DNA from: an uncultured delta proteobacterium
Lineage (GTDB): Bacteria > Desulfobacterota > Desulfuromonadia > Desulfuromonadales > JACZKF01
Assembly (NCBI GenBank): GCA_963816395.1
Contig: CAWFKQ010000005.1
Location: forward strand, 334,156 to 398,155
Reading direction: 5' to 3'
Length of the DNA: 64,000 nt
A program made the position numbers and the translations under genes. The notes below the pieces were generated by a model. The model searched no databases. It was not told the origin of the DNA and worked only from the letters and a program-made list of their open reading frames with translations. Shown here in pieces: positions 20,278 through 45,851 of the stretch (the stretch's first letter is position 1; each line of letters opens with the position of its first letter).

Positions 20278-21318
20278 TCAGATCAGCCCGCGGGCTTCCG
20301 CCACCTGTCCCCGGTAGAAATCGAAGATCAGATGCAGCGCCTGGCGCATGTCCACCTGCGGCTGCCAGCCGAGCTCGGCGCAGGTGTTGTCGATTTTCGG
20401 CACCCGGGTCTGCACGTCCTGGTAACCTTCGCCGTAGTATTCCTGCGACAGCACCTCCACCAGCCGCACCTTTTCCGCCGATTCCCGGTACTCTTCGATG
20501 CTGCGCCCCAGGTCCAGCATCATCGTCGCCAGCTCGCGCACGGAAAAGTCGTTGACCGGATTGCCGATGTTGTAGATCTTGCCGCTGGCCACCCCGTCCG
20601 GGTTCTCGATGATGCGCAGCAAGGCGTCGATGCCGTCGCTGACATAGGTGAACGCCCGCTTCTGGCGGCCGCCGTCGACCAGGCTGATGTTTTCCCCGCG
20701 CACGATATGGCCGAGGAACTGGGTCAGTACCCGGGAGCTCCCTTCCTTGGGGGTGTGGATGCTGTCCAGGCCCGGGCCGATCCAGTTGAAGGGGCGGAAG
20801 AGGGTGAAATCGAGCCGCCCTTCCATGCCGTACCCCCAGATGACCCGGTCCATGAGCTGCTTGGCGCAGGAGTAAATCCAGCGCGGCTTGTTGATCGGTC
20901 CGAGCACCAGCTCCGACTGGTAGGGATCGAAGGATTCGTCCCGGCACATCCCGTAGACCTCGGAGGTGGAGGGGAAAACGATGCGTTTGCCGTACTGCAC
21001 GCACTGGCGGACGATCGGCAGGTTGGCCTCGAAATCGAGCGAGAAGACCCGCAGCGGATCCTTCACATAGGTGGCCGGGGTGGCAATGGCCACCAGGGGC
21101 AGGACCACGTCGCACTTGCAGACATGGTATTCGACCCATTCCCGGTTGATCGTGATGTCCCCTTCGAAGAAATGGAAACGCGGATGCGCAAGCAGGTCGG
21201 CCACCCGCTCCTGGTTCATGTCCATGCCGTAGACGTGCCAGTCGGTGTCATCGATGATGCGCTGGCTGAGGTGATGGCCGATGAAACCGTTGACGCCCAG
21301 GATCAATACCTTCTTCAT
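20278..21318 (-). CDS. arnA: UDP-glucuronate decarboxylase / UDP-4-keto-pentose-forming dehydrogenase (ArnA C-terminal domain, encoded here as a separate ORF)
   Basis: Intact 346 aa; MKKVLILGVNGFIGHHL (Rossmann)..IYSCAKQLMDR (YxxxK)..; its ATG overlaps the upstream stop (ATGA). Confidence 0.85.
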   Translation of the reverse strand: MKKVLILGVNGFIGHHLSQRIIDDTDWHVYGMDMNQERVADLLAHPRFHFFEGDITINREWVEYHVCKCDVVLPLVAIATPATYVKDPLRVFSLDFEANLPIVRQCVQYGKRIVFPSTSEVYGMCRDESFDPYQSELVLGPINKPRWIYSCAKQLMDRVIWGYGMEGRLDFTLFRPFNWIGPGLDSIHTPKEGSSRVLTQFLGHIVRGENISLVDGGRQKRAFTYVSDGIDALLRIIENPDGVASGKIYNIGNPVNDFSVRELATMMLDLGRSIEEYRESAEKVRLVEVLSQEYYGEGYQDVQTRVPKIDNTCAELGWQPQVDMRQALHLIFDFYRGQVAEARGLI

Positions 21319-22248
21319 GCTTCTGCTCCAGGTTGTAATAAATGCCCGCCGAACAGGGTGGACAGCTCACCGGCCGGCAAGGCCGGAGCGAATTCATGGG
21401 CCAGGATCTCCAGTCGACGGCCGTCCCGGCAGTCGGCATAGAGCCTGTTGCCCTCCAGGTAAAGGCAGGGGGCGGCAGTCGGATGACGGGCGGCTTCGCT
21501 GTCGATCCGGCTGCGCAGTATCCGCAGGGTCCTGCCGGCCAGGGTGGTGAAGGCGCCGGGATATGGCGGGGCCACCGCCCGGATCAGGTTGTGGATCCGT
21601 TCGGCGGAGAGCTGCCAGTCGATGCGCCCGTCCGCCGGCCGCCGGCCGCCGAAATAGCTCCCCTGCCGCAGGTCGAGAGGGATGCGGGGCGCCTGCCCGG
21701 CAACCAGCAGCGGCAGGGAGCGGTGCAGGACCAGCTCGGCCGCCCAGGTGACCTTGTGGAACACCTCCAGGGCGGTATCGTCGCCCAGGATCGGCACCGC
21801 CTGCTGATCGACCAGGGGACCGGCGTCCGGCTTCAGCTCCATGTAGTGCAGGCTCGCACCGGTCTCCCGCTCGCCGTTGATGATGGCCCAGTTGACCGGG
21901 ACCCGGCCGCGGTAGCGCGGGAAGGAGCGAGCCGTGCATGTTGAGGGCACCGCGGCGGGGGATGGACAGCAGCCCCTCCTTGAGCATCTTGCGGTAATAG
22001 AAGGAGAAGATGAAATCGGGCTGCAGCTCGCGCACCCTGGCGATCACTTCAGGGGTATTGGGGTCCTCCGGGGTGATCACCGGGATGTCGTGCCGCTGCG
22101 CCAGTTCGGCGACGCTGGCGAACCAGAGGGTCTCGCCCGGGTCATCCCGGTGGGTGACCAGCAGGGAAACTTCCATCCCCCCATCGAGCAGGACCGACAG
22201 GCAGCGGTAGCCGACGTTGTGATAGGCGAAGACCACGCACCGGTTCAC
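21315..22248 (-). CDS. arnA: UDP-L-Ara4N formyltransferase (ArnA N-terminal domain, encoded as a separate ORF), one apparent frameshift
   Basis: GTG 22248 (GTGA overlap with the arnC stop): VNRCVVFAYHNVGYRCL..GALNMHGSLLP then, after a change near 21920, RYRGRVPVNWAIINGERETGASLHYM.. (HxSLLPxxRG formyltransferase motif). Confidence 0.8.
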
Positions 22249-25045: not shown

Positions 25046-26694
25046 GGTTTGGTCACCACCACTCGCCGCGGGTCGCGGGCGATCTCGCGCATGGGGATGT
25101 CCTGCCGGCGCAGCGCGGTAAAAGGGCGGGCGACATCACCGCCAGGGCCTTCGGCTCCGCCAGCCAGCGGGCCACGAAGCCGGGAACATCCGGAACCCAC
25201 TTCTGCGGTTCCCGGGAAATCCCGAAATCCAGCTCCCCCCGGCTCTTGACCAGGGTCAGCGTGCGGTTCAGATAGAAGGGAAGAGTCTGATCATAGCGGC
25301 CGACACAGTAAAAAGGGATGTCCGAGGTATTGTAGGGAGCAACCTGGTGGGCGAGAGCATGCGCGGAATAGGAAGGGGTCAAGGCCTGCGCCCCGGTGAG
25401 CCAGAGGTGCACGGCGAAAAACCAGCTCAAGGCCAAGGTCCCGATAACCCTTTCGAATCTCGCCTGCCGAAGCCACCGCCAGGCCGCCAGGGTTCCCAGC
25501 AGAATCAGCCCTAAACCTGCCGTCAACCATGGGGTGAGGGCGGCATAGAGTTCCGCCGGGGCACTGGGCCGGCCGAAACGTTCGAGGCCGAACGTCAGCA
25601 CGAACAGCAAACCGCCGAGGGCGAAAAGGCCGGAGAGCAGGGTGTTCCAGCGCAGTTGCGACCGGGCCGGGCTGGCCAGCCGCAGGCCGATAAGCAGCGC
25701 CAGCGCCGGGAATACCGGCTCGATGTAAGGAGGCAGCTTGGAATCGGAGAGGGAAAAGAAGACCAGGATGGCCCCCCCCCAGGACCAGAGGAAACGCTGC
25801 GCATCGAAACCTTCCGCGCGGTTCCTGCCGGCGCCATCCCTCGGTCAGCACCGCCAGCTGCTGCGGCATCCAGGGAAGACTGCCGACGATCAGGATCGGC
25901 AGAAAAAACCACCAGGGTTCATAGCGATGATGCACCTTGGTGAGAAATCGCTCGAAGTGTTCATGGATGAAAAAGAAATGGAAGAAATCGGGGTTCTTCA
26001 GAGAGACCAGGATGAACCAGGGCGCCCCCAGCAGCAGGAAGACGGTCAGCCCGGAACCAAAATGCAGACGTCGCCAGAGTTTCCAGTCCCGCTGCAGCAG
26101 GGTATAGAGCACCACGGCGCCGGCAGGCAGGACGAGCCCGATCAGCCCCTTGCTGAGCACCGCCAGGGCCGCGCTGCCCCAGGCCATGAGCATCCAGGAC
26201 CGGCTTTTCCCGCCCTCGGCGGCGGCCTGCTGCGCCAGCAGAATACCGACCATGCTTGCGGTCAGGAAAAAAGTCAGCCCGGTATCGAGGGTATTGAAGC
26301 GGCCGAAGGAGGCGAAGTAGATCGTGCTGGCGAGCGCGACGGCGGCATAGAGGCCGGTGCGGCGGTCGAAAAGGCGGCGCCCGGCCAACCAGACCAGCAG
26401 GACGGTGCCGAAGCCGGTCAGGTACGACCACAACCGGGCCGTCCAGTTATGCAGGCCGAAGGCGCTGTAAGCGGTTGCCGTTGCCCAGTATTGCAGCGCC
26501 GGCTTTTCAAAATACTTGAAGTCGTCCAGGCGGGGGGTCAGCCAGTCTCCGCTTGCCACCATTTCCCTGGGGATCTCGGCATAGCGGCCTTCGTCCGGAT
26601 GGAACAGGTCGCGGTACTGGATATTACTGAACCACACTACCGCCAGGAGGAGAATAATCAGAGCGTGGTTGCGGATCTTCGAGGATTCATTCAC
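25042..26694 (-). CDS. arnT: Undecaprenyl-phosphate-alpha-L-Ara4N:lipid A arabinosyltransferase ArnT (GT83), two apparent frameshifts
   Basis: MNESSKIRNHALIILLLAVVWFSNIQYRDLFHPDEGRYAEIPREM..YFEKPALQYW.. Continues after ~25825 as ..EGFDAQRFLWSWGGAILVFFSLSDSKLPPYIEP.. and after ~25125 as ..FTALRRQDIPMREIARDPRRVVVTKP. Confidence 0.85.
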
Positions 26695-26883: not shown

Positions 26884-27138
26884 CTAGAACAGGATGACCC
26901 CGATCAGCCCGAGAACGGCCACCCCGATGGCCCCCACCGCCAGAACAATGGCGGCGATGCTCAGCAGGCCACCGCCGATGCGCGGTGAAGCGGCCATGAC
27001 CAAGCCGATGATGCCGAGGGGGATGGCCACCAGCGCCGCAATCAATCCGTAGACCGGGTGAGCGGTAAAGGTGAGGAAATAACTGGCGATGGCGGCGATG
27101 ATGGAAACCGTTGCGCTGGTACCGGCTTTCTGTTCCAT
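26884..27138 (-). CDS. Small hydrophobic membrane protein, unknown function
   Basis: 84 aa, three predicted TM stretches (..IIAAIASYFLTF.., ..GLIAALVAIPLGIIGLVMAA.., ..LLSIAAIVLAVGAIGVAVLGLIGVILF). Confidence 0.5.
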   Translation of the reverse strand: MEQKAGTSATVSIIAAIASYFLTFTAHPVYGLIAALVAIPLGIIGLVMAASPRIGGGLLSIAAIVLAVGAIGVAVLGLIGVILF

Positions 27139-27329
27139 TAATTTTTCCCCGGGTGGAGGCGGCCGGCGACCTGCGGCCGCGAATTATCTCCAGTTTATCA
27201 CTGTTGAAGAGCAAGAAAACCATCTCCGGGCCGCTTTGCTCCAACAGAGAAATTTTCTGCTTGCGAGTTTAGACATTCGGGAGAAAGGTTTTATTCTTTC
27301 AGGAGGGTCAAGCAACTTATGGAGAGAAA

Positions 27330-27824
27330 ATGACGAACCAGGAACCTGCCTACATTTCCCGGGTACGCATCGAACGCCTGAAGGGGCCGATCCGCCTGGC
27401 CTATCTGCCAGCAGAAAAAGAACCGGTGGTCTTCGGCATGCACGGACCGGTGGCGGAGCACTACGGCCGCAGGGCGGAGGAAGTAAGAGAGCCGCACGCC
27501 ACTACCCTCGACTACGTGGTGGCGGCGACCGGCGGCTGAATGGTCGGCACTTTTGCCGGCGCGCTGGAAGCGCGTCAGATCCCCGCCGGCGGGGGGCGTC
27601 TAACCGCCGAAGTCCGCGGTGAAATCGAACTCGAAGACAATGTTCTGGTCATCCGCCGCATCCATATCGTCTATCACCTCACGGCCACTCCCGGCCAGCA
27701 GGAAACCATCGACCGGGTCCAACGGATCCACCATCAGGGGTGCCCGGTCTACCGTTCGCTGCACAAGGGAATCGAGATCACCTCCGAAGTGCAAATCAAG
27801 GAGGAGCAGGCGACTACCGGTTGA
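27330..27824 (+). CDS. OsmC/Ohr-family peroxiredoxin-like protein with an in-frame TGA (27537..27539) at the first conserved Cys position; candidate selenoprotein
   Basis: Track ORFs 27330..27539 and 27540..27824 share one frame and are separated only by TGA. The junction reads ..HATTLDYVVAATGG[TGA]MVGTFAGALEA.. and the second conserved Cys is present in ..HHQGCPVYRSL. Confidence 0.65.
27545..27576 (+). promoter_or_regulatory. Candidate bacterial SECIS: two adjacent hairpins 6-37 nt downstream of the in-frame UGA
   Basis: CGGCA-CUUU-UGCCG (27545..27558) and GGCGCGC-UGGAA-GCGCGUC (27558..27576; 7 bp including one G-U, G-containing apical loop). Confidence 0.4.
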
Positions 27825-28935: not shown

Positions 28936-29352
28936 CTAATTTTCACGCTCGGCTCTTTCAAAGGCAGCTTGCGCCCCAGGCAGGTCCCCGAGTTTACTTC
29001 GTGCCCGGCCGATGATCCGCCAGTTTTCAGTCAGCAGGCGCTTGTCATCCCCGCCGAGGGCATTGGCTTTGGCAGCGAGGTTTTCCGCTTGCCGGTATTG
29101 TCCCTGATCCAGTCGGACGCGCGCCAGTTCCTGCCACAGCAGGGGATTGCGCGGTTCGATGCGCAAGGCGCGTTCCAGCGAGGCGCCGGCGGCCTCCGAA
29201 CGGCCGGCGGACAACTGGGTTTGTGCCTGGCCCAGCAGGGCCACCACCGCCTCGTTCCGCGACGGTGGCGGCGGCGCACCCGGCTGCAGCCCCGCACACC
29301 CGGCAAGAAGCAGGACCGCGGCAATTATCGAAGCACTGCGCATTCCGGTCAT
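28936..29352 (-). CDS. TPR-repeat lipoprotein
   Basis: ATG 29352: MTGMRSASIIAAVLLLAGCAG (lipobox LAGC), then TPR-like ..ERALRIEPRNPLLWQELARVRLDQGQYRQAENLAAKA.. Confidence 0.65.
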   Translation of the reverse strand: MTGMRSASIIAAVLLLAGCAGLQPGAPPPPSRNEAVVALLGQAQTQLSAGRSEAAGASLERALRIEPRNPLLWQELARVRLDQGQYRQAENLAAKANALGGDDKRLLTENWRIIGRARSKLGDLPGAQAAFERAEREN

Positions 29353-31638
29353 CGGTCGAATATCCTTTCGAACCAGCCTTTGATCGACCTGCCCAGGGAG
29401 CCCGGCCCGCACGGTGCGGACTCCGTCGGCGCCGAGCCGGCAATGAACGGAATTTCGACGGCATCCCGACACCCCTTGCCGCTGCGCAGGCCCGATACCG
29501 GGTCGATCCAGACCCGTTCGATATTCTCCGGTTCGGGCAGGATCAGCGGCTCGGGGTTCAGGCCGGCCATCATGTCCCCCCAGACGGTCATGGCCCCGGA
29601 TGCCCCGGTCAGACCCGTCGACACATTGTCATCGCGTCCGACCCAGACCACGGCCAGTCGATCCTCGGTAAAGCCGGCGAACCAGCTGTCGCGAAAGTCG
29701 TCGGTGGTGCCGGTTTTTCCCGCGGCATCGAGCGCCGGCGGCAGATAACCAGCGAGCCCGCGCGCCGTCCCCTCGCGAACCACATCCTGCATGGCCGTGG
29801 TCAACAGGTAGAGAGGCGCCGGCTCGATGGTCTGCTCCACGTTGAGCGGATAGCGCTGCAGCGGTTCACCCTCGGCGGTCAGCACTGCCCGGATCGCCCG
29901 CAGCGGCGTGCGAAAACCGCCGCCGGCAATCGTCTGGTAAACTTGCGTAACCTCCAGGGGGGAAAGGGCGTTCGAACCGAGCAGGCTGGAGGCAAACTCC
30001 GGCAGATCACGGTCAATCCCGAGCCGCTGGAGGTTGGCCATCACCCGGGAGACGCCGAGGGACAGGCCGAGCCGCACCGTCGGCACGTTGTACGAGTTCG
30101 CCAGGGCGGCTTGCAGCGACACCTCGCCGTGGAATTCCTTATCGTAGTTCTGCGGTGCCCAGTCGCCGGTGCCTGCCTGCTGCAGAACCAGTGGGCTGTC
30201 GTCAAGCAGCGTCGCCAGGGTGTAGCTCTTCGGTTGCTCCAGGGCGGTGAGGTAGACGACCGGTTTAATCAGCGAGCCGATCGGTCTTTGGGCGTCGAGA
30301 GCGCGGTTGAACCCCTCGAAACGCGGGTCGCGCCCCCCCACCAGGGCCTGGACCTCGGCGTTCTGAGTGCTGGTGACAACCAGCGCGCCCTGCAGCGTGG
30401 CGGGCTTTATGGCGCGGTCCTTTTCCAGACGCGCCAGGCGCTTGCTCAAAGCGGTTTCGGCCGCGCGCTGCACCCGGGGATCCAGGGTGGTGAAAATCTG
30501 CAGTCCTTCTGAACGCAGATCCTGGTCGCGGTAGTCGCGCGTCAACTGGCGATACACCAGGTTCAGAAAGGCCGGATACGGAGAGGTGCCGCGGGGCGGC
30601 CTCTCGACCACGCCAAGGGGCGCCGCCTGGGCCGAACGCTCCTGCTCGGCGGTAATGACCCCCGCTTCGGCCATCTCCCCAAGGACGAGATTGCGCCGCT
30701 CCAGGGCGCGCTGCGGATGGCGGCGCGGGCTGAAATAGGTCGGCCCCTTGAGCATCCCCACCAGCAGGGCCGCCTCGGGGAGATCGAGATGGCTCAGAGG
30801 CTGATCGAAATAGAAGGGGGCCGCCAGACCGAATCCGTGAATCTCGCGGTTGCCGTCCTGCCCCAGGTAGACTTCATTGAGGTAGGTTTCGAGGATCTCG
30901 TCTTTGCGGTAATGGATCTCCAGCAGGACCGCCATCACCATTTCGGTGAGCTTTCGCTGCAGCGTGCGCTCGGCGGTCAGGTAGAAATTCTTGACGAGCT
31001 GCTGGGTCAGAGTGCTGCCGCCCTGCACGCTCTCGCCGCTTGCCGTCGCGAGGAGTGGCCCGAGCGATGCCCCGCGGATCGATGCCGTGGTGGGAATAGA
31101 ACCGGCGGTCCTCAACCGCGATCAGGGCATCGACCACCTGCCTGGGTACATCGGCGAGTTTTACCAGAACCCGATCTTCGTTTTTCCCGGGATAGATGCC
31201 GCCGATCAGGGCCGGGTCCAGGCGCACGAGCGGTAACGGTTTATCCCCGGCGAGAGCGCGCAGTGCTCTCACCTGGCCGTTCCCGAACTCGACGCGCAGC
31301 GATATCGCCTCCTGGGGACCGTCGGCGAAGACGAAGGGGCGCGTGACCAGATCCAGGGTGTCGTTGCTCCAGTGGTAAGTGCCAGGGGCCAGAGGATGCG
31401 GCGTCTCGCGGTAATCGAGCAGGGCGAGTTCCGTGTTCATTTCCGCAGGCCGCAGGCCCAGGCCCGGATACAGCTCCAGCGGCCGCGCATAGACCCGCGC
31501 CGGCAGCGCGAACCGCTTGCCCTCGAAGCGTGCCCGCACCGTGAAGTCCAGGTAGACTGTATAGATAGCGGCAAGGAGCAGTCCTGCCAGGGCAAAGAAT
31601 AGCAGAAATCTTATTTTCGGATGCCGGCGTTTAGCCAT
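29349..31638 (-). CDS. mrcB: Bifunctional penicillin-binding protein 1B-type (glycosyltransferase + transpeptidase), one apparent frameshift
   Basis: MAKRRHPKIRFLLFFALAG (TM)..EDRRFYSHHGIDPRGIA | ..GGSTLTQQLVKNFYL..RKLTEM.. (GT51), ..GSLIKPVVY (SxxK)..AGKTGTT (KTG). Change near 31056. Start at ATG 31638 (GGAAAG RBS); a TTG at 31695 is possible. Confidence 0.85.
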
Positions 31639-32170: not shown

Positions 32171-33167
32171 ATGTCAAGAATGAAGTTTCCCAGCAGTCTG
32201 ATTCTGTTAATAACGTGGGTCTGTTTACTGGCACCCGGTATCCCGGCCGAGGCGGCGGAAAGCGAGTTCGCCGCCTGGCTGGAGAATGTCCGCGTGGCGG
32301 CCCGTTCCGCCGGCATTTCGGAAAAAACCGTGCAGACCGCCCTGTCCGGCATCCAGGAGCCGCTCCCCCGGGTGGTCGATCTCGATCGGAAGCAGCCCGA
32401 GTCCCTGCAGAGCTTTGCGGATTACGTCGCGGCCCGGGCCAATGAGAAACGGATCGCCAAGGGGCGCAGGATGACTGCGCCGCTATCCGACCTGGCTGGG
32501 CAGGGTCGAACGAAAATACCGGGTACAGAGACGCTTCCTGGTGGCTCTGTGGGGGATCGAAACCAATTACGGCGAACACTCAGGCAGCTTCCCGGTCATC
32601 CAGTCCCTGGTCACCCTGGCCTATGACGAGCGCCGCGGCCCCTATTTTCGCAGGGAGCTGTTCGATGCTCTGCGGGTCCTCGACGCCGGCCACATTCCAT
32701 TGGAGCGCATGAAGGGCTCCTGGGCAGGGGCCATGGGTCAATGTCAGTTCATGCCCTCCTCTTTTCGCCGTTTTGCGGTCGATGCCGAAGGCAACCATCG
32801 CATCGACATCTGGGACTCGGTTCCCGACGTGCTGGCTTCGACCGCCAATTACCTGGCAAGTGCCGGATGGAAGGATGACCAGACCTGGGGGCGTCCGGTG
32901 CGGTTGCCAAAAAATTTCGATTTCTCCCTGGCCGGACTGGATACCCGTCTGCCGCTTTCTCGCTGGCAAGCCCTCGGGGTGCGGCGCAGCAACGGCCGCG
33001 CCCTGCCCCGGCGCAATCTCGAGGCCTCGCTGATCGCCCCCGAAGGCCCCGAGGGACCGGCCTACCTGGTGTATGACAATTTCCGGGTGCTTCTGGCCTG
33101 GAACCGATCCAAATCATTTGCAGTGGCGGTCGGGACTCTTGCCGACCGGGTTGCCGGCCGGAGATGA
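32171..33167 (+). CDS. Lytic murein transglycosylase (MltB/Slt-2-like), one apparent frameshift
   Basis: MSRMKFPSSLILLITWVCLLAPGIPAEA (signal)..EKRIAKGRRM | ..RRFLVALWGIETNYGEHSG..GAMGQCQFMPSSF..DVLASTANYL..; change near 32475. Confidence 0.8.
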
Positions 33168-34707: not shown

Positions 34708-35063
34708 TGGTGGAGGTGGCGGGAATCGAACCCGCGTCCGAACGTCTTTCACGTAAGGCTTCTACATGCTTAGTCTGTATATTGGATTTAACCCGCCGGA
34801 GCTCCCACAGACAGGATATCCGACGGGCGATTCTGCTTTATTTCGCCCCGGCACCGCAGACCCTTGCCGGGACTAGCCCACTAAATTGACGTCTCAGGCC
34901 CTACGCGGGCGATAGAACATGAGACGTGACGGCAATTAAGCCGCCAGTGCGTACTGAACGTCGTTGTCGGCGTTTGTGTTTGTGCCAGTTTTTTAACGAG
35001 GCCAACTGGCGTCCCCGGCATGCCACCTTCGCTTCCGACCTCCGTCGAAACCAGGTCACCCCC
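34708..35063 (-). ncRNA. ssrA: tmRNA (SsrA)
   Basis: Minus strand: 5-prime GGGGGUGACCUGGUUUCGACGG.., tag reading frame GCC GAC AAC GAC GUU CAG UAC GCA CUG GCG GCU UAA = ADNDVQYALAA* (34936..34971), 3-prime tRNA-like end ..GGACGCGGGUUCGAUUCCCGCCACCUCCACCA. smpB is adjacent. Confidence 0.95.
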
Positions 35064-35159: not shown

Positions 35160-35621
35160 CTATTCCTGGTATTTTCCCTTGATGATTTTCCCCATCTCAC
35201 GCGCCGCCTCTTTCTGCTTGAGGGACTCGCGCTTATCGTGCAGCTGCTTGCCGCGGGCGACGCCGATTTCCAGCTTGGCCCGGTTTTCCTTGAAATAGAG
35301 TTTGGTGGGGACGAGGGAAAAGCCGCGCTCCTCAACCTTGCGGTACAGCTTGCCGATTTCCTCCCGGTGCAGCAGCAGCTTGCGCATCCGCGTCGGATCG
35401 GCGGGATTCTCCCGGCTCCCCTGCTCGTAGGGGCTGATGTGCATGTTGTTGATGAAGACTTCGCCATTTTTGATCCGGCAGAACGATTCCTTGAGGTTGA
35501 CTTTACCGTCGCGCACCGATTTCACCTCGGTGCCGGTCAACATCAGACCGGCCTCGTATACCTCGTCGATAAAGAAGTCGTGATAGGCCTTCTTGTTGGT
35601 GGCGATGATTTTAATGCCCAT
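35160..35621 (-). CDS. smpB: SsrA-binding protein SmpB
   Basis: Intact 153 aa; [35 protein letters not shown].. Confidence 0.95.
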
Positions 35622-40104: not shown

Positions 40105-40908
40105 CTATTTGAACGTATGTTCTTCCCCCGGGAATATCTCTTCCTTCACTTCGCGGATGTAATCCTCCACCCCCTGGCGAATGATGCCGGAAATGTCGGC
40201 GTACTTTTTGACGAACTTGGGGGAATATTTTTCGCATAGGCCGAGAATGTCGTGCAGAACCAGTACCTGGCCGTCGCAGTGCACGCCGGCACCAATGCCG
40301 ATAGTGGGGATGGCAACCGTTTCGGTAATCTCCCTGGCCAGAGTAGCGGGAATTCCCTCGAGGACCAGGGAAAAAGCGCCGGCCGCCTCGACCGCCCGCG
40401 CGTCAGCCAGCAACTGCCGCGCCTGCTCTTCCTGACGTCCCTGCACCTTGTATCCCCCCATGCGGTGGACCGATTGCGGGGTTAGCCCGATATGACCGAC
40501 GACCGGGATATCCATATCGACGATGGCACGAATCGTTTCCGCAACGTTTTCGCCCCCCTCAAGCTTCACTGCCTGGGCGCCCGCCTCCTTGATCAAGCGG
40601 CCGGCATTGAGCCGGGCATCACGCAGGTCGGTCTGGTAGGAGAGAAAGGGCAGATCCGCCACCACCAGAGCACCGACGGTCCCCCGCATGACCGCCCGGG
40701 TATGGTAAAGCATTTCCTCCATGGTCACCGGCAGGGTAGTGTCGTAGCCGGCGACCACTACGCCGACCGAATCGCCAACCAGCACCATGTCGATCCCCGC
40801 CTGGTCAACCAGGCGGGCCAGGGGGTAGTCGTACGCGGTGAGAACGGCAATTTTCGTCCCCTTCGCCTTCATCTCCTGCATATCCAAAATGGTTTTGCGT
40901 TTTTTCAT
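40105..40908 (-). CDS. panB: 3-methyl-2-oxobutanoate hydroxymethyltransferase
   Basis: ATG 40908: [49 protein letters not shown].. Confidence 0.95.
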
Positions 40909-41339
40909 CTCTCTCGCTCCACGCCGGCGCCCGAAAACAGAAAAGCCTTCCAGGAGCGAGTCCGAAAGGCCGTGACCAGAAGGAGATTTCTCCACCCCTT
41001 GCCGGTGCCGCTATTGCCTTCCGTCCCGGTCCCATCGGATCCAGGCGGTATTGTTTCGTTCAGTAAAACCTGCGGCTGTTCGCTCCGGTACGGGTTCCGG
41101 GCTGACCGCAACAAAATCCAAAAAAACGTTTTATCCTATACCATATGCAGCAAAAGTTGTCCAGAAAAATTCGCGACCTTCATCCCCCACCGACAGGCCG
41201 AGAACGTCAGGTGCTTCGGGCTTTTGCGGGGGGGCCGAAGATCGCAGACGGTCCCTGGGAAAACGCTGCGGGTTGGCAGTTGCATTACCGGCAGATTGCG
41301 CTAATTATATGAATGTGGGTTTGCTAACCGGAGGTGTTT

Positions 41340-43878: not shown

Positions 43879-45417
43879 CTACAGATGAACGCTGGTGCGT
43901 TTGACCACCGAAGCCATCTTATTGAGGGCGTTGAGGTAGGCCTTGGCGCTGGCGACGATGATATCGGGGTGGGCGCCCTGTCCGAGGACCTCGCGGCCGT
44001 CTTCCTCCAGGCGCACCGTGCATTCCCCCTGGGCATCGGTGCCACCGGTAATCGCCCCGACCGAGAACTGCAGCAGTCGGGCCTGGCTCCGGGTCAGCTT
44101 CTTGATGGCCTTGAAGGTCGCATCGACCGGCCCATCTCCCATGACCGCGGTCTTTCTAACCCTGCCATCCACCTCCAGTTCGACGGTAGCCGTCGGGGCG
44201 GCGAATGAGCCTGAAGCGACATTCATCTGCCGCAGCCGATAGCGTTCCGGCACCCGGATGATTTCATCGGCAACGATGGCGTCCAGATCCTCATCGAAAA
44301 TTTCCTTTTTCTGGTCAGCCAGTGACTTGAAGCGGACGAAAGCCTTTTCGATGTCCTCCTTGCCGAGCTCATAACCAAGCTCCTTCAGGCGGTCAATAAA
44401 GGCATGTCTACCGGAGTGCTTTCCCAGCACCAGTTTGTTCTGATTGAGGCCGATCGACTCGGGCGTCATGATCTCATAGGTCGATTTTTCCATCAAGACC
44501 CCATGCTGGTGGATCCCTGCTTCGTGAGCAAAAGCGTTGGCCCCGACTACGGCTTTGTTCGGTTGGACGACGATGCCGGTGATGGTGGAGAGCAGTTTGC
44601 TGGCTGCATAGATATGCTCGGTCATAACCTTGGTGGCAAAGGGGAGAATATCGTGGCGGGTGCGCAGGGCCATCACCACCTCCTCCAGAGAACAGTTGCC
44701 GGCCCGTTCGCCGATACCGTTGATGGTGCATTCCACCTGCTCGGCACCAGCCTGAATTGCCGCCAGGGAGTTGGCGACCGCCAGCCCCAGATCGTTATGG
44801 CAGTGGACGGAGAGAATCGCCTGCTCGACGTTCGCCACGTTTTCCTTCAAGTACTTGATGAGGTTGAAGTATTCGAAGGGGATGGTGTAGCCGACGGTGT
44901 CCGGGATGTTGACCACCTTGGCGCCGGCCTCGATAACTGCCTCGACGATTTTGGCCAGAAACGGCAGACGGGTGCGGGCGGCGTCCTCTGCCGAGAACTC
45001 GACGTTGGGAGTGTAGCGGGCGGCCCGCCGGACCGCTTTGATCGCCGTCTCCACAACCTGGTCCTCACTCATCTTCAACTTGTGCTGCATATGAATGTCA
45101 CTGGTGGCGATGAAGGTATGGATGCGGCCGCGCTCACCGGCGAATTTCAGGGCTTCCCAGGCCCGGTCGATGTCCATGTCGTTGGCCCGGCAGAGGCCGG
45201 CGATCTGTGGCCCTCTGATGGTCTGGGCGATCTTTTTGACCGCCTCGAAATCCCCATCCGAGGCGATGGGAAAGCCTGCCTCGATCACGTCGACATTCAA
45301 CTTCTCAAGTTGATGGGCGATGCGCAGCTTCTCATCGATGTTCATGCTGGCGCCAGGCGACTGCTCGCCATCGCGCAGAGTGGTATCGAAAATCTGGATC
45401 ATCTTCGGCTTGTCCAT
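43879..45417 (-). CDS. leuA: 2-isopropylmalate synthase
   Basis: Intact 512 aa; [25 protein letters not shown].. Confidence 0.95.
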
Positions 45418-45574: not shown

Positions 45575-45815
45575 GACATAAATAAAAAACTCCCGCCCCA
45601 TCCAGGGGCGAGAGCAGAAGCTTCGCGGTACCACCCTGATTCACCCGCCGCCTTTCTCACGCTGCAGCGGGCCTTGTTGTCCTTTACGCAGACTCACGGC
45701 ACCGGCTAAGCTGCCACTGGCAGACTCACCGATGCGGCTCCGAGGCGAGTTCGATTCCTTCCTGTACCGGCTTGCAGCGACCGCCGACTCTCTGCGACAG
45801 GGGGGAGAATCTACT
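45575..45815 (-). promoter_or_regulatory. T-box leader (tRNA-sensing riboswitch) with intrinsic terminator, upstream of leuA; probable Leu specificity
   Basis: Minus strand: AGAGA box gcAGAGAGtcgg (about 45787..45796); T-box sequence aaucAGGGUGGUACCGCGaag (core 45624..45637); terminator CUCGCCCC-UGGA-UGGGGCGGGAG + UUUUUUAUUU (45581..45613). Candidate specifier GAA-CUC-G. Confidence 0.85.
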
Positions 45816-45851
45816 ACTCCTCTTCAACGCCTTTCCTTGTTATGTCTGCCT

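Follow-up and report, generated by a model that had tools for sequence, protein, structure and literature searches.

Selenoproteins of the OsmC type were predicted in 2005 from the Sargasso Sea as three sequences with the motif UxxT (with U standing for selenocysteine, Sec) (PMC1088965), and later surveys and reviews still list the OsmC-like selenoproteins as one family (GOS 2008, PMC2398784; PMC9312934; PMC13188914). The Sargasso sequence AACY01145085 reads ..PAPLAYIVAGIGF-U-LLTQLKRY..QGCFAENL, with GAAGCG-GUA-CGCUUC as its selenocysteine insertion sequence (SECIS) (PMC1088965, supplement). It scores 157.4 bits (cutoff 95) on the NCBIfam model NF041052, "OsmC-related (seleno)protein," so that the published family and the curated model are the same. 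Here, we analyze a gene of the OsmC fold in a 64-kb stretch of contig CAWFKQ010000005.1 (hereafter, the window) from a Desulfuromonadales bacterium. The gene extends over 164 codons at 27330..27824 (+), and its sole interruption is an in-frame TGA at 27537..27539. With a probability of roughly 0.88, we read it as a single OsmC/Ohr-fold gene in which this UGA is decoded as Sec70, with the hairpin at 27559..27575 as the SECIS. An earlier note, made from the letters of the window, had suggested that Sec takes the place of the first conserved Cys, with a SECIS further downstream; the same TGA in 160 of the 160 closest relatives and a conserved hairpin after it bear this out.

The window protein and its relatives, which we call the clade, share several features with the NF041052 family: the OsmC fold (PF02566), Sec at the first conserved Cys with the second Cys kept, Sec and Cys columns that align, and an intragenic hairpin that lies some 20–25 nt past the UGA and has a G among its first two loop nucleotides. 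On the other hand, the window protein reaches 23.4 bits on NF041052 (cutoff 95), outside that family, and ten diverse members of the clade reach at most 26 bits on NF041052 and at most 27.5 bits on any OsmC model. Between the window and Sargasso proteins, identity amounts to 21% (pairwise E = 0.002). The motif is U-x-x-G-T in the clade (U-M-V-G-T in the window) but U-x-x-T in the NF041052 family and, unlike that family, the clade has an N-terminal region of ∼58 residues with invariant R22, H38, and Y45. The SECIS is GCGCGC-UGGAR-GCGCGY in the clade and GAAGCG-GUA-CGCUUC in the NF041052 family, and the clade stems from soil, sediment, and anaerobe lineages, whereas the NF041052 family stems from marine surface samples. 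The OsmC-like Sec/Cys pairs from metagenomic surveys to which the earlier note refers belong to a different clade (NF041052, UxxT), of which the window gene is not a member. No description of the present clade was found in the literature searched, the searchable literature being incomplete. The clade is thus separate from the published family and larger, and it is apparently uncurated.

The two open reading frames (ORFs) at the locus, 27330..27539 and 27540..27824, are in the same frame, with the TGA at 27537..27539 as their sole separator. Translated through, the junction is ..HATTLDYVVAATGG-[TGA]-MVGTFAGALEA.., and the second conserved Cys is present downstream in HHQGCPVYRSL; the frame, the junction, and this Cys are thus as first described. 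The Pfam profile OsmC (PF02566) spans the TGA, matching residues 59–152 with 46.3 bits (gathering cutoff 27.5; Cys placed at the TGA), and assigns the read-through product to the OsmC family. Together, frame and Pfam match delimit a complete coding sequence for an OsmC-fold selenoprotein (27330..27824, +; 164 codons including Sec70), with TGA (27822..27824, +) as terminator at the end of the gene. The Sec70 codon (27537..27539, +) falls in the column that OsmC/Ohr proteins fill with their first conserved (peroxidatic) Cys, where the earlier note had placed it. In the HMMER alignment with Thermus thermophilus OsmC (1UKK), GG[C]MVGTFAGALE is matched to AAHAG[C]FSMALAASLE, and QG[C]PVYRSL to EG[C]PVSRAL; the family profile puts the TGA column on the Cys of 1UKK and of Ta0195 (2ONF).

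A protein search gave 290 relatives, and the classes of residues at the TGA column were taken from the best 120. Among these, 12 full-length proteins have Cys at the column (so that Cys lines up with the TGA, as anticipated), another 53 of full length have "W," and about 50 are fragments of 90–97 amino acids (aa) whose first residue is the one directly after the column. These C-terminal stubs are found in databases as "OsmC family protein" or "hypothetical protein." In the DNA fetched for "W" proteins (for example, L001:579-1061, L002:43-525, L003:188-670, and L004:1774-2250), the column codon is TGA, rendered as Trp by the genetic code 4 of the depositors. Genuine Cys forms (the control consists of four DNA sequences and 12 proteins) have TGC (L085, L087) or TGT (L086, L088) at the column.

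The same holds at the DNA level in genomes and metagenomes. A genome scan (one genome per GTDB species) confirmed at least 585 relatives in representative genomes, and a metagenome scan, seeded with the Cys forms alone, confirmed at least 510 places in contigs; in each, the codon was read in the best 80. TGA is present in 80 of the best 80 genome loci, from at least eight phylum-level groups, and in 80 of the best 80 metagenome loci, although the query consisted of Cys forms. The Acidobacteriota make up the majority of the best 80 genome loci; the other carriers belong to Geobacteraceae and Desulfuromonadales, Desulfobacterales, Dehalococcoidia and other Chloroflexota, Nitrospirota, KSB1, Poribacteria, Binatia, and Rokubacteria. 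Those 80 include a single cultured carrier, Geobacter argillaceus ATCC BAA-1139, in which the TGA is kept. In 82 relatives, the identity to the window protein is 62.5% upstream of the TGA and 56.2% downstream; with both halves conserved, both are under selection as protein. In one metagenome locus (L102, contig Ga0137379_10094663), another stop interrupts the frame nine codons ahead of Sec (..ATTLD*VVAAAAG*LTG..), which probably reflects a pseudogene or a read error.

Downstream from the TGA, two hairpins had been noticed, and both are indeed present in the window, but only the second is conserved in the family. Hairpin 1 (GUCGGCA-CUUU-UGCCGGC, 27543..27560, +) has the loop CUUU and a folding energy of −11.4 kcal/mol; hairpin 2 (27558..27576), with the loop UGGAA, has −13.3 kcal/mol (z = −3.1). 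Each folds better than 198 of 200 shuffles (over a 23-nt stretch for hairpin 2), whereas the whole 71-nt region is unremarkable (z = −0.02), and only the isolated hairpins stand out. The core of hairpin 2, the SECIS (27559..27575, +), overlaps the Gly-Ala-Leu-Glu-Ala-Arg codons. Its stem of 6 base pairs (bp) runs from G27559-U27575 to C27564-G27570, with an optional additional pair G27558-C27576, and its apical loop U-G-G-A-A (27565..27569) begins 25 nt after the UGA. In the family, the core pairs are (positions 275xx) G59-Y75, Y60-G74, G61-C73, C62-G72, G63-C71, and C64-G70, and the loop is U-G-G-A-R. The SECIS of E. coli fdhF, the prototype, has a bulged U; the window hairpin is without one.

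The geometry of hairpin 2 is, as proposed, that of a bacterial SECIS. The bSECIS model of bSECISearch has four constraints, namely an apical loop of 3–9 nt above an upper stem of 4–16 bp, a G within the first two loop positions, a spacing of 16–37 nt from the UGA, and a free energy of −7.5 kcal/mol or lower (PMC13188914, Fig. 2A). The window hairpin agrees with all of these, with a loop of 5 nt, a stem of 6–7 bp, a spacing of 25 nt, and −13.3 kcal/mol. In addition, the loop U-G-G-A-R of the window and of the clade fits the pattern N1-G-[G|U]-N-N2, in which N1 and N2 are able to pair (PMC13188914). SECIS elements of different genes are usually dissimilar (review PMC13188914); compared with this generalization, the SECIS of the clade keeps an unusually constant sequence from one phylum to the next. 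The motif has a single match in the whole 64 kb. Rfam scans with gathering and permissive thresholds found no SECIS family at the locus, a result that is uninformative.

The constraint on the hairpin is visible at synonymous sites. Codons +7 to +12 after the TGA are GGY GCG CUG GAR GCG CGY. Among 84 unique sequences from genomes, GCG is used at the two Ala codons in 81 and 82, respectively, CTG at the Leu codon in 81, CGC or CGT at the Arg codon in 82, and GGC or GGT at the Gly codon in 83. Given the amino acid, the third-position entropy at the Ala and Leu codons of the hairpin is ∼0.2 bits in this set, as against 1.4–1.9 bits for the Ala, Leu, and Arg codons in the remainder of these genes. 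The freezing is reproduced in 74 unique sequences from metagenomes, an independent set. Of 80 distinct genome-derived sequences, 96%–100% form the six core pairs; with seven pairs counted, 91% of cells are paired, compared with at most 61% for slid controls. In the combined pairing set (153 unique sequences), 97%–100% form the six pairs of the stem as well as the U-R pair closing the loop.

Because the paired columns are nearly invariant, a shuffle control on them is uninformative, and we therefore rely on synonymous-site entropy, slid controls, and the rare compensatory changes. In L124, a double change gives GCA...GUG with an A-U pair (Ala to Val plus a synonymous change) and, in L145, another gives GGA...CUC, also with an A-U pair (Arg to Leu plus a synonymous change). 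Glu is substituted in L096, L100, and L128, each time at the free fourth position of the loop. The peptide GALEAR is near-invariant in Sec forms and retained in 2 of the 12 Cys forms; since it is free to vary in the Cys forms, the constraint is at the RNA level.

Hairpin 1 was considered as a conserved element and rejected, since 48% of its cells are paired in the 80 distinct sequences while slid controls reach up to 61%. Besides the window, the Geobacteraceae loci L005 and L009 are those among the fetched ones that form it. Stable in the window but unconserved in the family, hairpin 1 probably lies outside the core element.

Some loci depart from the canonical hairpin. In G. argillaceus (L077:10184-10243), it is broken (GCG CTG GAG GCA AGG), and a weaker alternative, UCGGCG-GUG-CGCUGG (−5.7 kcal/mol), is present slightly upstream; this could be an alternative SECIS or belong to a decaying gene. 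Three Dehalococcoidia loci (L050:10199-10258, L070:10199-10258, and L072:5640-5699) use GGC GCC CTT GAG GCG CGC, in which a shifted helix GCGCC/GGCGC with loop CUUGA replaces the canonical GCGCGC-UGGAR-GCGCGY. Among Cys forms, L087 has lost the hairpin, and L088 (RALQVR group; 639-700) keeps it through a compensated A-U pair (GCA...GUG).

Several observations weigh against the reading of the locus as a selenoprotein gene with a SECIS. The 64-kb window has no tRNA-Sec, and a Pfam scan of its 40 annotated proteins gave no selA, selB, or selD. Covariation in the stem is almost nil, with two compensatory events in 153 sequences. The two closest Cys forms, L085 (TGC) and L086 (TGT), keep an identical hairpin. 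Finally, the position of the canonical catalytic Glu (Cp-10, with Cp the peroxidatic Cys) is Leu or Ile in the clade. As for the hairpins in Cys forms, the sequences suggest fossil SECIS elements left after a recent Sec-to-Cys conversion; since Cys forms can retain it, the hairpin alone does not mark Sec forms. In 60 related loci as well, no tRNA-Sec was found within 10 kb on either side. With no sel genes in the window, the Sec-decoding capacity rests on the taxonomy and on the intact gene. The placement of the source in the Desulfuromonadales comes from IlvC, which has a 100% match on the 527,647-bp contig that also carries the 94-aa fragment of the OsmC-like gene; the closest named relatives by IlvC are Desulfuromonas species, at 89%–90% identity. 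Desulfuromonas and Geobacter, both of this order, are selenoprotein-rich, with 6–8 selenoproteins per species, SelD included; the list has no OsmC-like member (PMC1794560, Table 3). We thus infer that the source organism decodes Sec and, by analogy with known bacterial systems, the insertion at Sec70 would be SelB-dependent. In such a mechanism, SelB with Sec-tRNA(Sec) would bind the hairpin at 27559..27575 and bring Sec to the ribosome, in competition with release factor 2.

Among the other explanations of the locus, the one that fares best, though we consider it improbable, is that the UGA is read as an amino acid other than Sec (Trp, Cys, or Gly, through a suppressor tRNA, a near-cognate tRNA, or a reassigned code), or that the Sec machinery has been lost and the gene is silent. 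The rendering of many homologs with "W" by code 4 in metagenome pipelines, and the failure to find sel genes in the 64-kb window, would fit with it. However, the terminators of the clade genes are TGA in 44, TAA in 21, and TAG in 20 (n = 85, window gene included), so that TGA is not reassigned in these organisms. Genetic codes 4 and 25 are ruled out on that ground; under code 4, the reading of L001–L003 passes the true TGA terminator and adds "WCC." The carrier phyla use the standard code, and a synonymously constrained hairpin of SECIS type would be purposeless under simple read-through. An intact frame together with a canonical SECIS in the window copy argues against a recent loss of the machinery.

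Translation could also stop at the UGA and restart at the adjacent AUG (UGAAUG), giving polypeptides of 69 aa and 94 aa that perhaps assemble. An ATG does follow the TGA directly in the window, and gene callers annotate the 94-aa piece alone (P0004). On the other hand, the codon after the TGA is a Leu codon (CTG, CTC, or CTT), which is no start, in roughly half of the relatives from genomes and in 73 of the 78 from metagenomes, which makes a split into two proteins very unlikely. The internal ATG is without a preceding Shine–Dalgarno motif, the split would remove the residue of the catalytic-Cys column while the Cys-form homologs encode one chain, and in the structural model of a Cys form the break would fall in the middle of a long central helix.

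Equally unlikely is that the hairpin is a by-product of encoding Gly-Ala-Leu-Glu-Ala-Arg in G+C-rich genomes, with no function as RNA. The stem does coincide with conserved residues, the same hairpin occurs in two Cys forms that share the peptide, and the energy of the 71-nt region is ordinary for its composition. Yet the Ala, Leu, and Arg codons are fixed here at 96%–100% while all synonyms are used elsewhere, the amino acid substitutions in L124 and L145 are compensated by a synonymous change in the pairing partner, the peptide differs in 10 of the 12 Cys forms, and the 23-nt hairpin outdoes all but two of its 200 shuffles.

The least credible explanation, a nonsense mutation or base-calling error in a pseudogene or in an error-prone assembly, can point to several other disrupted genes in the window (and thus to an indel-prone assembly or a decaying genome), but the other disruptions examined are frameshifts and not substitutions, both halves are conserved at the protein level, the downstream hairpin is intact and canonical in the window, and the conservation of the TGA in relatives from independent genomes and samples excludes a sequencing error or a private nonsense mutation.

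Returning to the selenoprotein, we compared it with E. coli OsmC (1QWI/1NYE), T. thermophilus OsmC (1UKK), and the Ohr proteins of Xylella and Chromobacterium. The AlphaFold model of P0002, a natural Cys form 62% identical to the window protein, has a pLDDT of 94.3, and its top neighbors in the PDB are all OsmC/Ohr proteins (TM-score 0.65–0.78, identity 8%–22%). The window protein thus has the OsmC/Ohr fold, as judged on the Cys-form model, with low sequence identity and with Sec in place of Cp. In the P0002 model, the first Cys is inside a long central helix and the second at the kink between two C-terminal helices.

A hallmark of Ohr/OsmC proteins is a pair of peroxidatic and resolving Cys ∼60 residues apart (PMC5384416). 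Redox residues occupy both positions here, Sec70 and the presumed resolving Cys138 (codon 27741..27743, +), with a spacing of 68 residues that is the same in 142 of 155 clade members. Cys138 is part of a Cys-Pro motif present in 155 of 155 unique Sec forms. Arg22, in a GPxR motif (codon 27393..27395, +), is also Arg in 155/155 and lies near the loop between strands 1 and 2, a position typical of Ohr; by analogy (PMC5384416), it is a candidate active-site Arg. His38, Tyr45, and Thr59 are invariant in the clade as well. In contrast to the Glu of OsmC/Ohr, Cp-10 is Leu or Ile (Leu60 in the window), and it adjoins an invariant Asp61 (codon 27510..27512, +). Gly and His, but not the Arg of OsmC proper, occur in the loop that joins strand 3 to helix 1. 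The window protein scores 17.8 bits on the OsmC subfamily model TIGR03562 (cutoff 85.8), and a subfamily profile search matched it to no Ohr model. The clade is not OsmC proper and probably not Ohr proper either, and it resembles a poorly characterized third group of the family.

With Leu or Ile at Cp-10, a peroxidase activity is uncertain. The label "peroxidatic," which the earlier note had given to the TGA column, holds for the positional homology with the first conserved Cys; for the activity it stays conditional. An active site with Sec, Arg22, His38, Tyr45, Asp61, and Cys138 but without the canonical Glu may have a chemistry that differs from that of the lipoyl-dependent peroxidases. If the chemistry is of the peroxidase type, Sec70, which takes the place of the peroxidatic Cys within the long central helix, would attack a hydroperoxide or another oxidant, the oxidized Sec70 (Sec-selenenic acid) would form a selenenylsulfide with Cys138, and a dithiol partner (a lipoyl protein or thioredoxin) would reduce the Sec70-Cys138 selenenylsulfide. 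We give this mechanism, for the clade, an even chance or slightly better.

In the gene neighborhoods of about 80 loci, no broadly conserved partner occurs, and the window is syntenic with none of them. An AhpC/TSA-redoxin-like gene is found just upstream in about 13 loci, mostly acidobacterial (for example, L004:286-1605, −, and L026:8812-9636, +), and may be a functional partner; the window lacks it. A further neighbor cluster, in 10 loci, resembles an antisense ORF of that gene.

Upstream of the window gene, a Shine–Dalgarno-like GGAGAG (27321..27326, +) precedes the ATG by 3 nt. A promoter-like site, TAGACA and TATTCT with a 16-nt spacer (27270..27297, +), is present ∼33 nt upstream of the start codon; one such site was found against 0.1 expected from shuffles, as a consensus match only, and it suggests a separate transcription unit for the OsmC-like gene. 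On the opposite strand, just upstream, an 84-aa ORF (26884..27138, −) rich in Ala, Ile, Gly, and Leu gave no Pfam match and looks like a small membrane protein.

In the rest of the window, we looked for coding-like ORF pairs that share a frame and have one TGA between them. No other recoding candidate emerged, the other results being ordinary stops between adjacent genes or antisense to real genes; as a recoding candidate, the in-frame TGA is therefore unique in the window, in line with the earlier note, which had found only frameshifts elsewhere. One of these is in an ArnT/PMT-like gene (25053..26694, −), whose frame shifts after "...VLTEGW" so that the remainder is read in a different one. 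Other genes that look broken by frameshifts are at 29349..31115 (−), 32541..33167 (+), and 21315..21950 (−); the ORFs for PBP1, SLT_2, and a formyltransferase begin in the middle of their Pfam profiles. The broken genes suggest an indel-prone assembly or gene decay. The window is otherwise a housekeeping region with ilv/leu, pan, smpB-tmRNA, tsf-cdsA-dxr-rseP, and lipopolysaccharide genes. Three RNA elements score above the Rfam gathering score: a T-box leader (45601..45836, −) upstream of leuA (43879..45417, −), a pan motif (41017..41103, −) upstream of panB (40105..40995, −), and a tmRNA (34708..35063, −) with the tag ADNDVQYALAA, adjoining smpB (35160..35621, −).

Another selenoprotein of thiol-oxidoreductase type in Desulfuromonadales would not surprise specialists. 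What is worth reporting is the size of the hidden clade, its near-obligate use of Sec, a SECIS invariant across phyla, and the systematic mis-annotation. Our tentative proposal, for which the odds fall a little short of even, is that the clade is a second, undescribed and uncurated selenoprotein clade of the OsmC superfamily, almost obligately Sec-containing, with an essentially invariant SECIS, dominated by soil Acidobacteriota and anaerobic Desulfobacterota, and with a chemistry that perhaps differs. The frozen 17-nt SECIS over Gly-Ala-Leu-Glu-Ala-Arg would be a natural example of an RNA element dictating protein sequence, and GGYGCGCUGGARGCGCGY is specific enough to aid in finding the genes of the clade. 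Since the cultured G. argillaceus carries the gene, direct tests are possible. The correct annotation of the window gene would be one selenoprotein of 164 residues, while public records hold the clade as 90-aa stubs, hypothetical proteins, or full-length proteins with a false Trp (code 4). The only curated OsmC selenoprotein model, NF041052, misses the clade, so that pipelines dependent on it would overlook these genes, mostly in metagenome-assembled genomes of Acidobacteriota and Desulfuromonadales. If the proposal is true, a clade that annotation pipelines split or mistranslate would make up a substantial hidden part of soil selenoproteomes.

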